Positions 11,234 to 18,324 of a DNA stretch of 64,000 nt are shown here, piece after piece. The position numbers and the translations under genes were made by a program. The notes beneath the pieces were generated by a model. It was not told the DNA's origin. It saw only the letters and a list, made by a program, of their open reading frames with translations, and searched no databases. The stretch comes from a virus. The stretch spans positions 13,780 to 77,779 of IMG/VR virus record IMGVR_UViG_3300045988_103014; one strand, given 5' to 3'. Position 1 is the stretch's first letter; each line of letters starts with the position of its first letter.

Positions 11234-11262
11234 TTGACTTTCATTATTTTTTATGATATAAT
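11234..11262 (+). promoter_or_regulatory. sigma-70-type promoter (TTGACT-N17-TATAAT, TG-extended) for the radical-SAM cluster
   Basis: ttgactttcattattttttatgatataat upstream of 11285. Confidence 0.6.
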
Positions 11263-11284
11263 TATATTAAAAGGAGGTACAATT

Positions 11285-11584
11285 ATGTTCAAAATAATTG
11301 TAAACAACACATTTGAATGTGAATGTAGCGCCTTTCAAGAGCGCTATAATAACATTGAGAAAAGTCAGTATTTATCTGTTGAAAAGCATGGCGTGGATGA
11401 AAACTTTTTAGCAGATTGGAGAGCTTTTAGTGATGCGAATCCAGTAATCACTTCAATCGAATTCCAATACGATGGAACCTCTATGATTGAGTATTCTCAT
11501 TATAATGTATTGCAAGAAGTGAATATTAGTTCACTTCCAGACGAAGTGACTTTGGGTGGTACTATTACATTTGTACAAAAATAA
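11285..11584 (+). CDS. hypothetical protein, first gene of rSAM cluster (100 aa)
   Basis: strong RBS AAAGGAGG; no recognisable domain. Confidence 0.6.
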   Translation: MFKIIVNNTFECECSAFQERYNNIEKSQYLSVEKHGVDENFLADWRAFSDANPVITSIEFQYDGTSMIEYSHYNVLQEVNISSLPDEVTLGGTITFVQK

Positions 11585-11600
11585 TTAGGAGGTACTAAGT

Positions 11601-12458
11601 ATGGCAGTATCAACAGGTTCAACATTACTATCCTCTGATATGCAATCTTGGTACAATCGCTTAAATGCAGTAATTTCTAAATATGGCGGCGGGATGGCTG
11701 GTGTTACAGTGCCCGCAGCCAATAAAAGAGCTGATGCTTCTGATGTAAATACTATCGTAAATAAGTTTAACTCTATTAAAAGTGATGCTTATTTAGGAAA
11801 TGATAGTTGGATTTATACTGCTGGCTATACGAGTGTAAGTGTGGGAGAGTTAATTAGAGCAAGTCAAGGCACTGCTATTATAACCACATTAACAAGACTA
11901 GAAGCAATTAAATGTAGAAATAATGCTCGTTATAGTAATGGCGATAGTAATGCTCGTAATAGTTACGGAGATAGCAATGCTCGTAATAGTTACGGAGATA
12001 GTAATGCTAGAAATAGTTACGGAGATAGTAATGCTCGTAAATCTAATGGAGATAGTAAGTCTACTAAATCCAATGGTGACAGTAATGCGAGAAATAGTAA
12101 TGGAAATAGTAATTCTCGTCAATCCAACGGTTTTACTCAAAGCGCTCGTACTTATGACAGACAATCAGTGAGTGGTAGATACAATACTAACCAATGTTAT
12201 TTCTGGGGTCAAAGCGGAAAAAGTAATGGTAACGCTAATGCCACAAACAGCGATGGTAACTCCAATAGCAGAAACAGTTATGGTAACTCCAATAGCAGAA
12301 ACAGTTATGGTGACAGTAATGCTAGAAATAGTTATGGAGATAGCAATGCTAGAAATAGCTACGGAAATAGTAATGCTAGAAACAGTTATGGAGATTCACA
12401 ATCACGAAATTCACGAGATTCAAGAATAGATATTTATAACTCTAGAACGGTGGTGTAA
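11601..12458 (+). CDS. repeat protein: ~105-aa N-terminal region followed by ~14 Asn/Ser/Arg/Tyr-rich nonapeptide repeats ([DN]SN[AS]RNSYG); candidate multi-core precursor/substrate of adjacent rSAM enzymes
   Basis: RBS AGGAGG; two blocks of 27-nt tandem DNA repeats; no Cys in repeats; immediately followed by two rSAM-SPASM genes. Confidence 0.7.
   Translation: MAVSTGSTLLSSDMQSWYNRLNAVISKYGGGMAGVTVPAANKRADASDVNTIVNKFNSIKSDAYLGNDSWIYTAGYTSVSVGELIRASQGTAIITTLTRLEAIKCRNNARYSNGDSNARNSYGDSNARNSYGDSNARNSYGDSNARKSNGDSKSTKSNGDSNARNSNGNSNSRQSNGFTQSARTYDRQSVSGRYNTNQCYFWGQSGKSNGNANATNSDGNSNSRNSYGNSNSRNSYGDSNARNSYGDSNARNSYGNSNARNSYGDSQSRNSRDSRIDIYNSRTVV
11920..12135 (+). repeat. 27-nt tandem repeat block 1 (about 7 units) inside 11601-12458
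   Basis: gatagtaatgctcgtaatagttacgga and variants repeated head-to-tail. Confidence 0.8.
12226..12420 (+). repeat. 27-nt tandem repeat block 2 (about 7 units) inside 11601-12458
   Basis: ggtaactccaatagcagaaacagttat variants repeated. Confidence 0.8.
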
Positions 12459-12459
12459 A

Positions 12460-15602: not shown

Positions 15603-15604
15603 GC

Positions 15605-16546
15605 ATGATAGATATTATCGTATCAGTTGGAGATAATAACGCTCTTAATTTACAAAGAACTTTGAATACTATTGGAGATGTTAATGCAAATGTAATTGTC
15701 GTAGTTCCAGAAGAGTTAAGAGAATACTATATGCCAGAAGATGTAAGAGCCCTTTGTCCACTAATTCAGAATTTGTCTTATATTCGCTCAGGAGATAAGG
15801 TTCAACATATGCAACAGTTCTATGATGGACTACATTCAGAATTTGCTACGGGGGACATTATTACTTTTCTTAAAAGTGGAGATTATTTTTTAGGTGCGCC
15901 TCATATTGAACGTATTCAAAATATATTTGATGCCACCCCAAATGTAATGGTATTGTGCGGCCGTGTACAAACCAAGACTGGTATTAGTTTATATTGTAAT
16001 GATAAAATAAATTTACAAGGCAAGTTCTTTAAAAGACAATTTATTGACTACTATACTTTTTTTGAAGAGTTTGTTAATGAACTTGAATTTTCATTGAATT
16101 TGCACTATATTTCAGAAGTACAAAAAAACATTATTGAGTATATAGATGAAGTTATGGTGTTTATCACTTCTCCATTGAGCGATATAGGGGCAGCTTGTCA
16201 GCATTATTTTGACCAGGTTGTACCATATCAAGACTTTTTTGATAACACTTTAACTATTAAATACATTTATTCAATTATGGCTGAATGTTATTTCTCTTAT
16301 ATTGAGGCTATTAACTTAGAGGTTGATACGGCTGTGCTTGAAACATTGTTAAATGATATTTATAGATTTTATCTATATTTTAGACAATTAGAATTAACTG
16401 ATACTGAAGTGTTGGTTGAAATTTATAATCAAGGAATTTTAGCAAGATATGGAGTGGTTCGTCATCCTTTTGTTAAAAATATTCCAACTCTACATCTTAT
16501 TCAATTTTTGGAAATGTTAGAAGCTAATGTAAAAAGTGAGGAATAA
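15605..16546 (+). CDS. hypothetical protein (313 aa), rSAM cluster
   Basis: tightly packed ORF; weak resemblance of N-terminus to Rossmann-like/GT-A start (IIVSVGDNN) not sufficient for a call. Confidence 0.55.
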   Translation: MIDIIVSVGDNNALNLQRTLNTIGDVNANVIVVVPEELREYYMPEDVRALCPLIQNLSYIRSGDKVQHMQQFYDGLHSEFATGDIITFLKSGDYFLGAPHIERIQNIFDATPNVMVLCGRVQTKTGISLYCNDKINLQGKFFKRQFIDYYTFFEEFVNELEFSLNLHYISEVQKNIIEYIDEVMVFITSPLSDIGAACQHYFDQVVPYQDFFDNTLTIKYIYSIMAECYFSYIEAINLEVDTAVLETLLNDIYRFYLYFRQLELTDTEVLVEIYNQGILARYGVVRHPFVKNIPTLHLIQFLEMLEANVKSEE

Positions 16547-16549
16547 TTT

Positions 16550-17473
16550 ATGATAAATTACTATTGTCCAGATTTTTATACAAATCAAGCCTATTATGCA
16601 ATTTTATTTCAATTAAGAGAAAAGGGGGGGCAGTGCTTTTATCCGAATGTACGCATAGATACAATTTATGGTTGTTTTCCGAATTGTATCTGGAATGGCG
16701 GAGGATATGCTTTCACTCGTAGCGTACCACTAAATGTAATATATGATTATTTAGATTGGTATTCAGATAAAGGAGTTACTTTACAATTAACTTTAACTAA
16801 CCCCACACTAGAGCCTACAGATGTGTATGATAGATATGGTAATGCTATTTTAAAAGCGGCTAGTGAATATGATTTTGTTGATGTATTAGTATGTTCTCCT
16901 TACTTAGAAGAGCATATTAGAAAAAACTATCCAACATTAAAAGTGGATAGAAGTATTATCTCAACAACAAAAATCCGAGACACCGCAGATGATACAGTTG
17001 ACTATTATCTTAATTGTTTAAATGACTATAATATGTGCGTTTTACCTCGTAAGTATAGTAAGAAGCCAGAATTTTTATCTCAAATTCCAGAAGACAAGCG
17101 TAATAGATTTGAAATTTTGGTCAATGACCCTTGCCCTATCTCATGTCCTCATTTGAGTTCACACTATGAAGAGTTGGGATATGTGCAATCATACCAAAAG
17201 GGAAATGAAGGACAATGTGATTGTACTATGATACCTCGTTCAAACCCTTATAGACAGTGGATGTATCGTAAAGACCAACTTAGCTATGATGAAATTTGTA
17301 AGACTCTTGAACCACTTGGTTTCACCAATATTAAGCTAAGTGGACGCAATTCTTATGTATTTGCAGTATTACAAACCGTACCTTATCTAATTAAACCGGA
17401 ATATAGAGTGGATGTTTACAGAGAAGCTTTCGGTGAGTTTATGGATATGGATGTGGCTCCTATGTTTATTTAA
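16550..17473 (+). CDS. Cys-rich hypothetical protein, paralog A (307 aa)
   Basis: shares IYG-x-PNC-x-W-x-GG and LVN-x-C-x-CP motifs with 17485-18324. Confidence 0.6.
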   Translation: MINYYCPDFYTNQAYYAILFQLREKGGQCFYPNVRIDTIYGCFPNCIWNGGGYAFTRSVPLNVIYDYLDWYSDKGVTLQLTLTNPTLEPTDVYDRYGNAILKAASEYDFVDVLVCSPYLEEHIRKNYPTLKVDRSIISTTKIRDTADDTVDYYLNCLNDYNMCVLPRKYSKKPEFLSQIPEDKRNRFEILVNDPCPISCPHLSSHYEELGYVQSYQKGNEGQCDCTMIPRSNPYRQWMYRKDQLSYDEICKTLEPLGFTNIKLSGRNSYVFAVLQTVPYLIKPEYRVDVYREAFGEFMDMDVAPMFI

Positions 17474-17484
17474 GGGGGTAAAAT

Positions 17485-18324
17485 ATGATATATTATCATC
17501 TACCCGGACTGTTTGAATATTTTGATTTTTACCAAGTGTTTATTAAAATATTCCAAACAGAGCCTCATAAATTCAGAGATGTGAAAATTGCATCTATTTA
17601 CGGTGCGCCGCCAAATTGTTTGTGGGCTGGCGGCCGCACCGGACATCCTGCGGAAGGTAATATTTTTAAGATAATGGGTTGGTTACATGAGACAGGAATG
17701 AAATGCGATTTAGTGTTTAGTAACTGTCTTTTGGAACCTCAACACTTCTCTGATAAATATTGTAATACTATTTTACACACTTTTCACGAGTCGGGTAATA
17801 ATATTACAGTATATTCAGACGACTTAAAAAACTATATTCATACTAATTTTCCCGAGTATACTTTTACTTCATCCACTACTAAATGTATTAAAGATAAAAG
17901 TCTTGCGTGCGCAGAGGCTGATACATATGATTTAGTTGTATTGGATTATAATTTTAATTATCAAGAAGATTTCTTAAAAAGTATTGATAATAAAGAAAAA
18001 TTTGAATTACTTGTAAATTCAGTATGTACTCCAAATTGCCCTCAACGTTTTGAGCATTATACAGAAATTTCTGAATTTGCTCTTGGTATACGCAAAGACC
18101 ATAAAATTTTTTGTCCTTGTCAACAAAAAAAGTTTTGGGAAATTCTCAATAATCCCACTGTTTTAAAACTTGAAGATATATACAGGTATGAAAAAATGGG
18201 ATTTTCTCATTTTAAGATTGAGGGTAGAACAACTCCATATGCCGACCTGGTTGAAATCTTAGTATATTATATGGTAAAGCCTGAATATCAATTAGAAATA
18301 AGGCAAAGACTTATGTTCTGTTAA
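17485..18324 (+). CDS. Cys-rich hypothetical protein, paralog B (279 aa)
   Basis: paralog of 16550-17473; stop codon merges into promoter copy 10. Confidence 0.6.
   Translation: MIYYHLPGLFEYFDFYQVFIKIFQTEPHKFRDVKIASIYGAPPNCLWAGGRTGHPAEGNIFKIMGWLHETGMKCDLVFSNCLLEPQHFSDKYCNTILHTFHESGNNITVYSDDLKNYIHTNFPEYTFTSSTTKCIKDKSLACAEADTYDLVVLDYNFNYQEDFLKSIDNKEKFELLVNSVCTPNCPQRFEHYTEISEFALGIRKDHKIFCPCQQKKFWEILNNPTVLKLEDIYRYEKMGFSHFKIEGRTTPYADLVEILVYYMVKPEYQLEIRQRLMFC

Follow-up and report, generated by a model that had tools for sequence, protein, structure and literature searches.

Two radical SAM enzymes are encoded beside a repeat-rich protein in the genome of a huge phage. Do they modify that protein, and if so, by which chemistry and to yield what product? 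We analysed a window of 64,000 nt from the phage (IMG/VR record IMGVR_UViG_3300045988_103014), and compared the cassette within it to related loci in other phages.

Anatomy of the cassette

Eight genes (A–H) are tightly packed on one strand between positions 11285 and 18324, and each is preceded by a GGAGG-like ribosome-binding site. The successive intergenic distances from A to H are 16, 1, −8, −47, 2, 3 and 11 nt; with a 1-nt gap between B and C and an 8-nt overlap of C and D, the genes are translationally coupled. The starts of A (11285), D (13841) and E (15267) were refined from orthologs. The cassette lies inside an array of 34 tRNAs, in the tRNA/accessory region, and its features are:

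11127..11148, + strand: terminator-like hairpin, 9-bp stem with 6 GC pairs, then a T-rich tail
11234..11262, + strand: sigma-70-type promoter, TTGACT-N17-TATAAT, extended −10 TG, 11/12
11285..11584, + strand: A, small protein, 99 aa, start set by orthologs
11601..12458, + strand: B, putative substrate, 285 aa, family of 13 aligned
12460..13848, + strand: C, radical SAM, 462 aa, one twitch-like auxiliary cysteine set
13841..15313, + strand: D, radical SAM/SPASM, 490 aa, CX3CX2C and seven SPASM Cys
15267..15602, + strand: E, 111 aa, overlaps the end of D
15605..16546, + strand: F, 313 aa, N-terminal half faintly GT2/GT-A-like
16550..17473, + strand: G, U32-like TIM-barrel, 307 aa, U32 fold
17485..18324, + strand: H, U32-like paralog of G, 279 aa, 27% identity to G (E 8e-31)

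The original prediction described this operon correctly in its anatomy, but four points had to be corrected: the gene count, the cysteines of B, the nature of the DNA repeats and the auxiliary cysteines of C. Seven genes had been counted, and the eighth is E, which is kept in orthologous cassettes. The promoter first proposed was recovered as the top match within 10600–18700, as a match to consensus only. The hairpin just 5' of the operon closes the upstream unit.

The putative substrate B

Protein B consists, in order, of a head, a junction cysteine, a repeat arm, a central segment that we call the knot, a second repeat arm and a cap:

11601..11930, + strand: head, residues 1–110, helical bundle ending in the invariant C105-R-N-x-A
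11943..12131, + strand: repeat arm 1, residues 115–177, seven units [DN]S[NK][AS][RT][NKQ]S[YN]G, TRF period 27
12132..12230, + strand: knot, residues 178–210, YDRxxVSGRYNTNQCYFWGQS
12231..12419, + strand: repeat arm 2, residues 211–273, seven nonapeptide units
12420..12458, + strand: C-terminal cap, SRIDIYNSRTVV, conserved, stop codon included

AlphaFold predicted helices at residues 14–26, 46–60 and 87–108 of the head (pLDDT about 70–84 over residues 13–108) and disorder in arm 1 (pLDDT about 22). No match to B was found in Pfam, NCBIfam, PHROG, PDB or BFVD, and searches that included viral predicted structures yielded no recognisable relative of the head. Alignment of the 13 family members showed heads that were 56–78% identical and repeat arms that were only 8–45% identical, whereas the knot reached 27–73%. 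Even among near-identical variants, 8.5–16.5% of tail columns varied versus 6.4% of head columns. The [IV]-D-[IVL]-x-N motif of the cap also ends the B-like proteins of L015, L016, L018, L019, L021, L025 and L026.

The 14 nonapeptide units, in two blocks of seven, were as first described. Each has a basic residue at a fixed position; eight carry SYG / YG[DN] motifs, and six lack Tyr. The number of units is polymorphic, in that P0001, a protein 97% identical to B, has exactly one unit fewer. Together with the conserved head and the variable arms, this polymorphism gives B the pattern of a precursor. The underlying DNA had been reported as exact 27-nt repeats, but these proved mostly inexact (76–86% matches by TRF), with a single DNA-identical pair of units (12258/12285) and with one to five synonymous changes between the five DSNARNSYG units. 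Because the unit persists under synonymous drift, selection acts on the repeats as peptide.

The repeat protein had also been said to contain no Cys. In fact C105 and C199 are present, and both are invariant in all 13 members, with Y194 of the knot near-invariant. The exclusion of thioether (sactionine/ranthipeptide) chemistry, which was drawn from the supposed lack of Cys, therefore falls.

The radical SAM enzymes

Both enzymes carry the CX3CX2C motif (C25/C29/C32 in C; C56/C60/C63 in D). In D these cysteines are invariant in 66 diverse relatives, as are C391-x2-C394-x5-C400-x3-C404 and C327, C345 and C423, so that the full SPASM domain assigned to D stands. In C only C298, C316 and C422 join the radical SAM motif as invariant in 32 diverse relatives, a set that is twitch-like rather than full SPASM.

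Profile searches, which had been proposed as a check, returned enzymes that act on peptides. C matched Pfam Radical_SAM (E 3e-5), and its family matched the NCBIfam models PapB (29/32), YhhB (24/32), twitch (21/32), GrrM/OscB (18/32) and AmcB (17/32). The D family, drawn from a clade of 547 representative clusters, matched PapB (62/66), QhpD (51/66), rSAM_nif11 (46/66) and SCIFF (38/66). Among PDB profiles, D matched CteB 5wgg (1.9e-6) and 8vpo, and the only match of C was 9gm3, the triceptide synthase ChlB, whose native motif is YDR (PMC11499958); SkfB was also among the PDB matches. Neither enzyme reached the threshold of a curated radical SAM family (e.g., 39.5 bits against a cutoff of 518.7). 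At family scale both resembled only peptide or protein maturases; no tRNA/rRNA-modifying or cofactor family, the kind of profile that the original prediction had named as a refutation, was among the consistent matches, MoaA being matched weakly by 10/32 of the C family. A, C, D and E gave no match to an RRE/PqqD-like domain.

Among curated families the thioether former PapB ranks first for both enzymes. Because the nearest relatives of D are the thioether formers PapB, QhpD and SCIFF/CteB, D would, judged by this remote homology, most likely form thioether-type cross-links at the invariant cysteines of B. For C we favour C–C or C–O cross-links, or another change of side chain or backbone (e.g., epimerisation), in the variable arms. 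C, whose only PDB match is ChlB, may form cyclophanes at some aromatic residues, and the eight SYG[DN] units of B may be such sites in this window.

Accessory genes

Neither A nor E matched a known family (Pfam, NCBIfam and PHROG for A; profile searches for E). Proteins like A recur directly upstream of B-like genes in L001, L005, L008, L011, the L040 group, L048, L027 and L071, and E is conserved in L001, L005, L007 and L015–L017 and more weakly in L022, L024 and L034. F, a lineage-specific accessory, gave a marginal match to Pfam GT2 (E 0.027; 2/13 family members match, best 1.6e-5) and has an invariant K-x-G-D at the place of DxD. G and H are Cys-rich paralogs, as had been proposed, and contain the motifs first quoted for them; invariant Cys, His and KxxGR residues are common to both. 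G has the U32 fold and probably binds a metal or an Fe-S cluster, and residues 214–257 of H match Pfam Peptidase_U32 (E 0.0034).

Distribution among phages

The C-D-B core is widespread in large uncultured phages, and we found no published description of it. C and D lie side by side in about 55 distinct phage loci (C immediately 5' of D in 54/55 non-identical loci), and the co-occurrence search suggested with the original prediction placed a B-like protein beside them in about 51/55. Three of these approximately 51 B-like genes are broken, in each case only by in-frame TAG codons. The B-like proteins (150–470 aa) have the same design throughout: a conserved, helical head spans about 100 aa and is followed by a junction Cys and by a repeat tail that is low in complexity and hypervariable. 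Repeat periods are 9, 8, 5/15 or 4/8/16, the residue two positions past the aromatic varies, and no motif is universally conserved in the tail. The nonapeptide and the location in a tRNA region are lineage-specific, not defining.

Other genes join the core in some lineages. About 21 loci add U32-like Fe-S TIM-barrel proteins, the counterparts of G and H. The link between U32 and B is facultative, because other phages have lone U32-like genes (L013, L014) and more than half of the C-D loci have none within 10 kb. A YcaO gene is present in four locus groups. In L016 and L056, Pfam identified it (PF02624, E 1e-30 to 1e-35) directly 5' of the B-like gene, and in L021 and L093 its relatives, assigned by sequence clustering, also lie 5'.

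Proposed function and alternatives

Because C and D resemble only peptide maturases and because their neighbourhood is conserved in about 55 loci, a phage-borne, RiPP-like protein-maturation system acting on B is well supported by sequence comparison. That is, the general part of the original prediction holds. We assign a probability of roughly 0.65 to the reading that the cassette performs post-translational maturation with B as substrate and with C (twitch-like) and D (SPASM, two auxiliary clusters) as core enzymes.

Most likely, the two radical SAM enzymes modify B after translation. The operon would be transcribed from its own promoter, and the helical head of B (residues 13–108) would dock on the enzymes as a leader does, possibly helped by A. 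By means of 5'-deoxyadenosyl radicals, C and D would next abstract hydrogen atoms from the disordered tail and so introduce covalent modifications. Judged by conservation, the strongest candidate sites are C105-R-N-x-A at the junction, Y194...C199 of the knot and the C-terminal cap. G and H, a U32 duo of UbiU/UbiV size, may contribute oxygen-independent hydroxylation or other processing of the product, with F and E as putative lineage-specific accessories.

Cleavage into small peptides is unlikely; the product would most likely persist as a protein, as suggested by the folded, conserved head, by a Laminin_G_3 domain in the B-like protein of L066 and by the finding that no protease is universal in C-D-B neighbourhoods. 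It would combine a folded head with a cross-linked, protease-resistant, rapidly evolving Asn/Ser/Gly-rich tail, and would function as an effector at a surface or in conflict. Among characterised systems the nearest analogue is HXS, an antiphage system of bacteria, where a protein effector that bears repeats is matured by two radical SAM enzymes together with a small protein (PMC13128918). As a docking helper, A would parallel HxsD in that system and the Y protein of spliceases. By analogy with HxsA, phage–phage exclusion and host-envelope interference are possible roles, and a virion-associated adhesive tail is another.

It is unlikely, but deserves some weight, that B-like proteins are themselves structural, resembling tail fibres or whiskers whose tails are cross-linked by the enzyme pair to harden the particle or make it adhesive. 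Consistent with this idea, the module of the D/S/Y-rich clade lies directly 3' of tail genes (a tape-measure protein at 1828–6006 in L035; an F5/8-type-C tail protein at 4119–6491 in L030), the L066 protein has its Laminin_G_3 domain, and the folded head could serve to attach the protein to the virion. However, the cassette in the lineage of our window lies outside any structural module and has its own host-like promoter, B lacks any structural match in PHROG or any match among viral predicted structures, and relatives carry the cassette at different places in the tRNA array, as is usual for mobile cargo.

We also doubt the specific chemistry first proposed, in which B is a multi-core RiPP precursor that acquires a triceptide-type, three-residue cyclophane from Tyr to the C-beta of Asn/Asp in every nonapeptide. 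The eight SYG[DN] motifs are in register, C matches ChlB, and the C family matches the cyclophane formers YhhB, GrrM/OscB and AmcB. On this reading the repeats may be released as many copies of a small modified peptide, possibly by U32 'peptidases', and the fixed basic residue of each unit could be a cleavage site. Yet the known functions of U32 proteins are those of Fe-S hydroxylases rather than of proven peptidases (PMC6747719, PMC6599085), and the conserved head, knot and cap favour a protein product. Moreover, the cassettes of P0002 and P0004, with enzymes 76–82% identical to those of the window, have units such as KSNGD, DTNGN and SHGN that contain no Tyr, six units of B itself also lack it, and PapB outranks the cyclophane formers. 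Because close orthologous cassettes lack this Tyr, and period and composition differ by lineage, a YGN/YGD cyclophane is unlikely as a conserved per-repeat reaction.

An RNA or small-molecule substrate is improbable. Here G and H would be tRNA or rRNA hydroxylases of the TrhP/RlhA type that act for the many tRNAs of the phage, C and D would modify RNA or a cofactor, or make or modify another small molecule, and B would be an unrelated neighbour. TrhP and RlhA carry C-terminal domains, which are missing from G and H (279–307 aa). The surrounding array does include the UNN-anticodon tRNAs Ala-UGC, Pro-UGG, Val-UAC, Thr-UGU, Ser-UGA and Leu-UAG, kinds that carry xo5U34 in bacteria (PMC6599085), and for G and H alone RNA hydroxylation is a reasonable reading, given the fold of G and the lone U32-like genes. 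But the C-D-B core is kept where there are no tRNAs (L040) and beside tail genes, the enzyme profiles point away from RNA, and a protein substrate is indicated by the SPASM architecture, by the neighbouring YcaO and by the precursor-like B.

A cofactor pathway of the PQQ or mycofactocin type, with the knot or the IDIYN cap as true precursor and the repeats as spacer, is very improbable: PqqE and MftC are SPASM enzymes, mycofactocin clusters include the GT2 protein MftF (compare F) and B has a conserved Tyr-containing C-terminal motif, but no homologs of PqqB/C/D or MftB/D/E were found, F and E are missing from most C-D loci, and the long precursors keep their arms in frame under peptide-level selection, with cores that are hypervariable, unlike those of cofactor precursors.

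Tandem duplicate precursors are frequent in the D/S/Y-rich clade, and the core of the B-like protein in L016 is rich in Cys, Ser and Thr.

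Genes of the cassette and their setting

The cassette occupies positions 11285–18324 of the window, and its eight genes are all read in one direction, with junctions of 16, 1, −8, −47, 2, 3 and 11 nt. The original prediction had described a seven-gene operon and had overlooked gene E. A GGAGG-like ribosome-binding site precedes every gene.

Genes of the cassette (window positions; one direction throughout)
11285–11584: A, small protein, 99 aa; start refined from orthologous cassettes
11601–12458: B, repeat protein and putative substrate, 285 aa
12460–13848: C, radical SAM (rSAM) enzyme, 462 aa
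13841–15313: D, radical SAM enzyme, 490 aa; start refined from orthologous cassettes
15267–15602: E, small protein, 111 aa; start refined from orthologous cassettes
15605–16546: F, faintly GT2-like protein, 313 aa
16550–17473: G, U32-like protein, 307 aa
17485–18324: H, U32-like paralog of G, 279 aa

The promoter proposed for the operon (TTGACT-N17-TATAAT, with an extended −10 TG, 11234–11262) proved to be the top consensus match within 10600–18700, and a terminator-like hairpin lies upstream of it at 11127–11148. An array of 34 tRNA genes, all on the same strand (1642–24703), surrounds the cassette, whose G+C content is 32–34%, compared with 39–41% in the flanks. Among related phages (the window and loci L001, L005 and L015) the cassette breaks the tRNA array at differing points, and in L016 it stands before the array, as expected for mobile cargo. 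We rejected the array as the functional context of the cassette, because the position varies and because locus L040 has no tRNAs. The array of L015 includes a tRNA with anticodon TTA (20074–20146) that would be an ochre (TAA) suppressor.

Radical SAM enzymes C and D

Both enzymes contain the radical SAM motif CX3CX2C, the site of the 4Fe-4S cluster that cleaves SAM, and the motif is invariant in the relatives aligned: C25/C29/C32 in C (32 relatives) and C56/C60/C63 in D (66 relatives). Because the motif begins as early as residue 25 (C) and residue 56 (D), there is no space for an N-terminal RRE in either enzyme; sequence profiles for PqqD/RRE gave no matches in A, E, C or D. Cys-rich C-terminal domains had been predicted for both enzymes, and a full SPASM set, a type that binds two auxiliary 4Fe-4S clusters, was found in D only. 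The textbook SPASM domain of D (C327, C345, C391-x2-C394-x5-C400-x3-C404, C423) is invariant in its 66 relatives at 28–51% identity, and model TIGR04085 matched 41 of these family members. Beyond its radical SAM motif, C keeps just three invariant cysteines (C298, C316, C422) and is thus twitch-like rather than SPASM.

Assignment to known families was weak for the single sequences. The Pfam Radical_SAM model matched C at E 3e-5, below its gathering score; D had no single-sequence Pfam match, and the D family matched rSAM maturase models. We compared whole-protein scores with the NCBIfam cutoffs of PapB, QhpD, SCIFF, HxsB/HxsC, YhhB, GrrM/OscB, XyeB and rSAM_nif11. The best scores against curated families were 46.6 bits for C (cutoff 170) and 39.5 bits for D (cutoff 518.7), and the family-wide best E-values of 1e-15 to 1e-20 were still far below equivalog level. 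The best single-sequence NCBIfam match of D was the nif11-type peptide rSAM maturase. At the scale of families, C and D matched almost only peptide and protein maturases. In the D family (n = 66) the matches were to PapB (62 members, best 1.9e-20), QhpD (51), the nif11-type maturase (46) and the SCIFF maturase (38); in the C family (n = 32) they were to PapB (29), YhhB (24), DynA (22), anSME (22), twitch-type rSAMs (21) and GrrM/OscB (18). The original prediction expected C and D not to profile as RNA-modifying enzymes, and no RNA-modifying rSAM family was a consistent match of either.

Searches of PDB sequences agreed in kind. The D profile matched CteB (5wgg, 1.9e-6), 8vpo, ChlB and SkfB, whereas the C profile matched ChlB only (9gm3, 7.9e-5), a triceptide synthase whose native motif is YDR (PMC11499958). 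PDB searches with single C or D, with the G/H profile, with F, or with B as sequence or profile returned nothing useful, and PADLOC gave only a generic viperin-core match. The D clade is discrete: among 1.84 billion representatives of 50% identity clusters, 547 were matched at E ≤ 1e-3 and 291 at E ≤ 1e-30.

Repeat protein B

The repeats of B were in outline as first described: there are 14 nonapeptide units, seven in each of two blocks (residues 115–177 and 211–273), with the pattern [DN]SN[AS]RNSYG; the TRF period is 27, and SYG / YG[DN] motifs occur eight times. The earlier statement that B lacks cysteine was false: C105 and C199 are present and invariant in 13/13 family members, and the exclusion of thioether chemistry, which rested on that statement, falls with it. 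The exact 27-nt DNA repeats shrank to one DNA-identical pair of units. The five DSNARNSYG units are five different DNA sequences, with 1–5 synonymous differences. On this ground we rejected a recent origin of the repeats by slippage; the unit is kept by selection on the peptide.

Within the B family, identity to the window's protein was 56–78% in the head (residues 1–110) and 8–45% in the repeat arms. Near-identical variants had 8.5–16.5% variable columns in the tail versus 6.4% in the head, and one variant differed by the loss of exactly one repeat unit. Three elements are conserved: the junction motif C-R-N-x-A, which includes C105; a mid 'knot', YDRxxVSGRYNTNQCYFWGQS, which includes C199; and a C-terminal cap, [IV]-D-[IVL]-x-N. 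AlphaFold predicted a helical head with moderate confidence (residues 13–108, pLDDT about 70–84) and a disordered tail. B has no Pfam or NCBIfam domain, and its head gave no significant match to viral predicted structures. Recognisable relatives of A, E or the B head were found neither in Pfam, NCBIfam and PHROG nor, for B, in the PDB and the viral predicted structures.

Several readings of the repeat were discarded. The nonapeptide does not define the family, because the repeat period differs across it; the residue patterns are unsuited to an RTX-like or sulfatase-motif reading; and N-glycosylation sequons are absent from the window's repeats, with NGT and NSS present in other lineages. The repeat DNA also yields long spurious off-frame ORFs on both strands (window 11898–12429), rich in Val, Met, Ile and Leu, and the same artefact affects automatic ORF choice in several related loci.

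The chemistry first proposed, a Tyr-Gly-Asn/Asp cyclophane in each repeat, did not survive comparison with orthologs. Cassettes whose enzymes are 76–82% identical have KSNGD, DTNGN and SHGN units, in which Tyr is replaced by Asn or His. Within the window itself, 6 of the 14 units lack Tyr, and no aromatic-X-X motif is kept across lineages. The window does have eight YG[DN] motifs, yet the residue at +2 is variable and the aromatic is not kept; hence a Tyr cyclophane or an XYG tyramine splice would be at most lineage-specific.

Spread of the module among phages

B had 12 homologs in a large protein collection, and their contigs (up to 199 kb) keep the A–H order. A D profile was required to search IMG/VR, where scans with the single D or B sequence gave no matches; with it we recovered 78 loci, mostly on contigs of 100–200 kb, and a further 14 on MAG contigs. 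Six-frame ORFs of all loci were scanned with an HMM for each component, neighbouring ORFs were clustered, and counts were taken over 55 non-identical loci. C lies directly upstream of D in 54 of the 55. The anticipated co-occurrence of the repeat protein with the rSAM pair in other phages was borne out: in about 51/55 loci a B-like gene adjoins C–D. As in RiPP systems generally, a putative precursor with a conserved recognition part and a variable core (56–78% vs 8–45% identity within the family of the window's B) stands beside its putative modifying enzymes.

The B-like proteins share a common design and not a common sequence, namely a structured N-terminal head of ~100 aa followed by a low-complexity tail of short tandem repeats. 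The heads end near a conserved Cys ('IKCRN', 'QACRE', 'NYCxxH'). Clade 1 (27 loci) is rich in Asn, Ser, Gly and Thr with interspersed Tyr, Phe, Trp, His or Cys, and clade 2 (15 loci) is rich in Asp, Ser and Tyr and often has two tandem copies. Lineages differ in repeat period (9, 8, 5/15, 4/8/16) and in the residue at +2 from each aromatic. One relative of B has a fused Laminin_G_3 domain.

Other components vary. An A-like small protein lies directly upstream of B-like genes also in distant lineages (the L040 group, L048, L027, L071 and L011), whereas E and F occur only in close relatives. U32-like genes (about 21/55 loci) are optional, as is a ~170-aa helical protein after D in the Asp-rich clade, in which the module lies in a tail-gene neighbourhood. 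In L016 and L056 the gene directly upstream of the B-like gene encodes a YcaO cyclodehydratase (Pfam PF02624, E 1e-30 to 1e-35), and clustering places a relative at the same position in L021 and L093; Cys, Ser and Thr abound in the B-like core of L016. Since YcaO enzymes are a hallmark of peptide modification, their presence is independent support for the B-like proteins as substrates of modification.

No universal protease was found in the neighbourhoods of the loci. M28-like metallopeptidase genes adjoin the module in L031 (7826–8761, with a signal peptide) and L007 (1519–2562) only, and are possible processing proteases. Two loci depart from the common plan. In L054, four or five rSAM genes stand in a row around C–D (7472–13193 and beyond), with no recognisable B-like gene. 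In the variant cassette of L011 (4113–5462, 5563–6042), the B analogue is 159 aa long and its tail is rich in Cys, Asn and Gly; a 449-aa protein resembling a right-handed beta-helix stands before it, and there is a single U32-like gene. A DUF2828/DUF7788 protein occurs near the cassette both in the window (26166–27707) and in this distant carrier phage (L011, 14423–15931).

Three of the ~51 B-like genes, those of L018 (5500–6380), L021 (7700–8650) and L023 (7650–8620), are broken by in-frame TAG only, which indicates that these phages recode TAG. The gene in L023 has seven in-frame TAG codons and neither TAA nor TGA, and a U32-like gene in L010 (5408–6271) is likewise interrupted by TAG. All four carriers evidently reassign TAG to a sense codon.

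U32-like proteins G and H and the GT-like protein F

G and H, described as paralogs in the original prediction, are 27% identical (E 8e-31), and the fold check it had called for returned a U32 TIM-barrel for G (top match 5d88). Against PF01136, H scored 17.1 bits (gathering cutoff 22.4) and G had no match; 29 of 100 members of the G/H family matched at E<0.01 (best 4.2e-6), and one member is labelled a PrtC-family protease by its source. The family has 734 matches, and an alignment of 100 sequences revealed an invariant C195-x3-C199-x25-C225 and a near-invariant H205. We concluded that G and H are remote U32-family proteins. U32-like genes also occur alone in other phages (L013, L014), so the tie of U32 to the rSAM pair is facultative; with U32 in only about 21/55 loci, and elsewhere alone, an obligatory link was rejected.

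The paralogs UbiU and UbiV are neighbours and act as a heterodimer. G and H are also paralogs that lie side by side, similar to UbiU/UbiV in size, and in the U32 TIM-barrel fold of G they resemble the Fe-S hydroxylases UbiU/UbiV, TrhP and RlhA. Their C195-x3-C199 lies in a region similar to C193-x3-C197 of UbiV. The U32 proteins characterised so far hydroxylate aromatic or heteroaromatic rings independently of oxygen, with prephenate as oxygen donor (PMC10990095, PMC6599085). In UbiU/UbiV the 4Fe-4S cluster is bound by a four-Cys motif, CX6CX15CX3/4C or CXnCX12CX3C (PMC6747719). The pattern in G and H recalls this motif but differs from it, with three invariant Cys and a near-invariant His, and with C-x3-C-x25-C in place of CX6CX15CX3/4C; they fall below the Pfam threshold, and they sit in a phage protein-maturation operon.

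F scored 14.9 bits against the Pfam GT2 model (cutoff 23.3), which 2 of 13 family members matched, and has an invariant K-x-G-D in place of the GT2 DxD motif. F is only faintly GT2-like.

Relation to known systems

The closest architecture is that of HXS, an antiphage system encoded as HxsD-HxsB-HxsC-HxsA (Nat Commun 2026, PMC13128918); it occurs in bacteria (99.7% Pseudomonadota) and protects them from phages (PMC13128918). Both systems have two adjacent rSAMs, a small partner and a repeat protein that in HXS is matured yet stays a protein effector; A, C and D correspond here, and the likeness, one of architecture only, extends to the adjacency of A-B-C-D in the window and many loci. HxsB was weakly matched by 15/32 members of the C family and 13/66 of the D family. 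The cassette differs from HXS in being phage-borne, in gene order, in scores of C and D far below the HxsB and HxsC cutoffs, and in B, which has no Pfam or NCBIfam domain and whose repeats are [DN]SN[AS]RNSYG. HXS has no U32, YcaO or GT-like partner.

The thioether maturases (PapB, CteB, QhpD, SCIFF) are the most consistent curated neighbours of D, and CteB (5wgg) is its best solved relative. D shares with them a full 7-Cys SPASM domain, and B has invariant Cys; however, D scores 10- to 20-fold under the family cutoffs. Unlike ranthipeptide/SCIFF precursors, the window's B is a 285-aa protein with two Cys only and no CX3D-type repeats.

Triceptide synthases (ChlB, YhhB, GrrM/OscB, XyeB; PMC11499958) are likewise rSAM/SPASM enzymes acting on repeated aromatic-X-X, to which the eight YG[DN] of B and the sole PDB profile match of C may be compared; they differ in that the aromatic is not kept in orthologous precursors, C has three auxiliary Cys, and all scores lay below the curated cyclophane thresholds. 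Spliceotide pathways (PlpX/PlpY tyramine spliceases with XYG motifs; PMC11414181) also pair an rSAM with a small activator, and X-Tyr-Gly occurs eight times in B as SYG, but YG is not kept in B orthologs and no PqqD-like Y protein was detected. YcaO-dependent RiPPs (azol(in)e/thioamide) are approached by the four locus groups with YcaO upstream of a B-like gene (L016, L056, L021, L093), whose cores are rich in Cys, Ser and Thr, whereas the window has no YcaO, which is an optional add-on to the rSAM pair.

Proposed mechanism and fate of the product

We observed the genes themselves and their conserved adjacency, cysteines for cofactor binding, precursor-like conservation in B and the U32 fold of G, and infer the following scheme. 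The head of B would dock on the enzymes, possibly aided by A, in parallel to HxsD (PMC13128918) or to the splicease Y protein (PMC11414181). C and D would then modify the disordered tail by radical chemistry. For D the most likely reaction would be thioether-type cross-linking at the junction and knot, since its relatives are thioether formers and B has two invariant Cys. C, with three auxiliary Cys ligands and a cyclophane-synthase flavour, may cross-link the arms through C-C or C-O bonds or alter them in another way, with the SYG[DN] units as plausible sites in the window. Hydroxylation, or some other processing of the product, may fall to G and H. That product probably stays a protein, given the folded conserved head, the Laminin_G_3-fused relative, and the lack of a universal protease in the neighbourhood.

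We give a probability of about one in four to the full reading, in which the cassette represents a phage-specific class: a two-rSAM machine of large phages that would turn fast-evolving low-complexity tails into modified effectors of phage-phage or phage-host conflict (for example, a mirror of the HXS block of DNA entry), with YcaO, the U32 pair and the GT-like protein as options, with Asn/Ser/Gly-rich chemistry outside the characterised RiPP classes, and with the U32 pair performing the first known oxygen-independent protein hydroxylation. That the hypervariable tails stay in frame and are selected as peptide suggests an effector in an arms race. By analogy with HxsA, such a conflict role would fit the host-type promoter, the cargo-like G+C and the variable position in the tRNA array.

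As for the product's fate, maturation of a structural protein by the module is a serious alternative; a virion-associated role fits the tail-gene neighbourhood of the Asp-rich clade. Modification of RNA by the cassette enzymes is favoured for G and H by the tRNA context, the U32 fold and the U32 genes that occur alone, but it fails for the core, because A-B-C-D persists in L040 without tRNAs and because no RNA-modifying rSAM family is matched consistently by C or D. For a cofactor pathway like those of PQQ or mycofactocin, all the partner genes are missing here, and the long, selected, hypervariable arms would stay unexplained.

Novelty and other genes of the window

The general kind of system, rSAM-dependent maturation of peptides and proteins, is known; the precursor family, the two rSAM clades, the phage host range and the association with U32-like proteins appear to be new. 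C and D had no detectable homolog in 50,697 deposited phage records (tblastn), and the cassette DNA matched no deposited phage. In the same kind of search, G found a U32-like gene in three unannotated gut 'Bacteriophage sp.' contigs only. No curated family or PHROG was found for A, B, E, F or G/H. The module was not described in the literature on phage RiPP, rSAM, YcaO and U32 systems that we searched, which covered part of the journals, and a comprehensive survey of jumbo-phage genes mentions none of RiPP, SPASM, YcaO or U32. If the proposed reading is correct, large uncultured phages would own a widespread protein-maturation system (547 D-type clusters at 50% identity, ~55 distinct loci), the counterpart in phages of HXS, a defence that was itself described only recently. 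The known chemistry of peptide and protein modification would gain a precursor family and two rSAM clades, all new, and for the first time U32 Fe-S proteins would be tied to substrates that are proteins.

Outside the cassette, the window has genes for a sigma-70-family factor, a protein resembling vault proteins, RNA and NAD-dependent ligases, NAMPT, an SPFH protein, a lysozyme/amidase, and GyrB and GyrA. By the relatives of the vault-like gene, its source is a large uncultured phage. The sigma factor, ahead of the tRNA array (4–903), is full, with regions 1.2, 2, 3 and 4. Inside the array and just downstream of the cassette (20182–21528) lies a gene for a polysaccharide synthase of the GT2 type, membrane-bound and PgaC/IcaA-like (match to TIGR03937 at E 1.9e-46, below the cutoff). 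The vault-like protein (30797–33268, 823 aa) matched the Major Vault Protein shoulder (PF11978, E 5e-26) and vault repeat domains; relatives of its gene in deposited phage records, at ~44% identity, occur only in uncultured phages of 462–735 kb.
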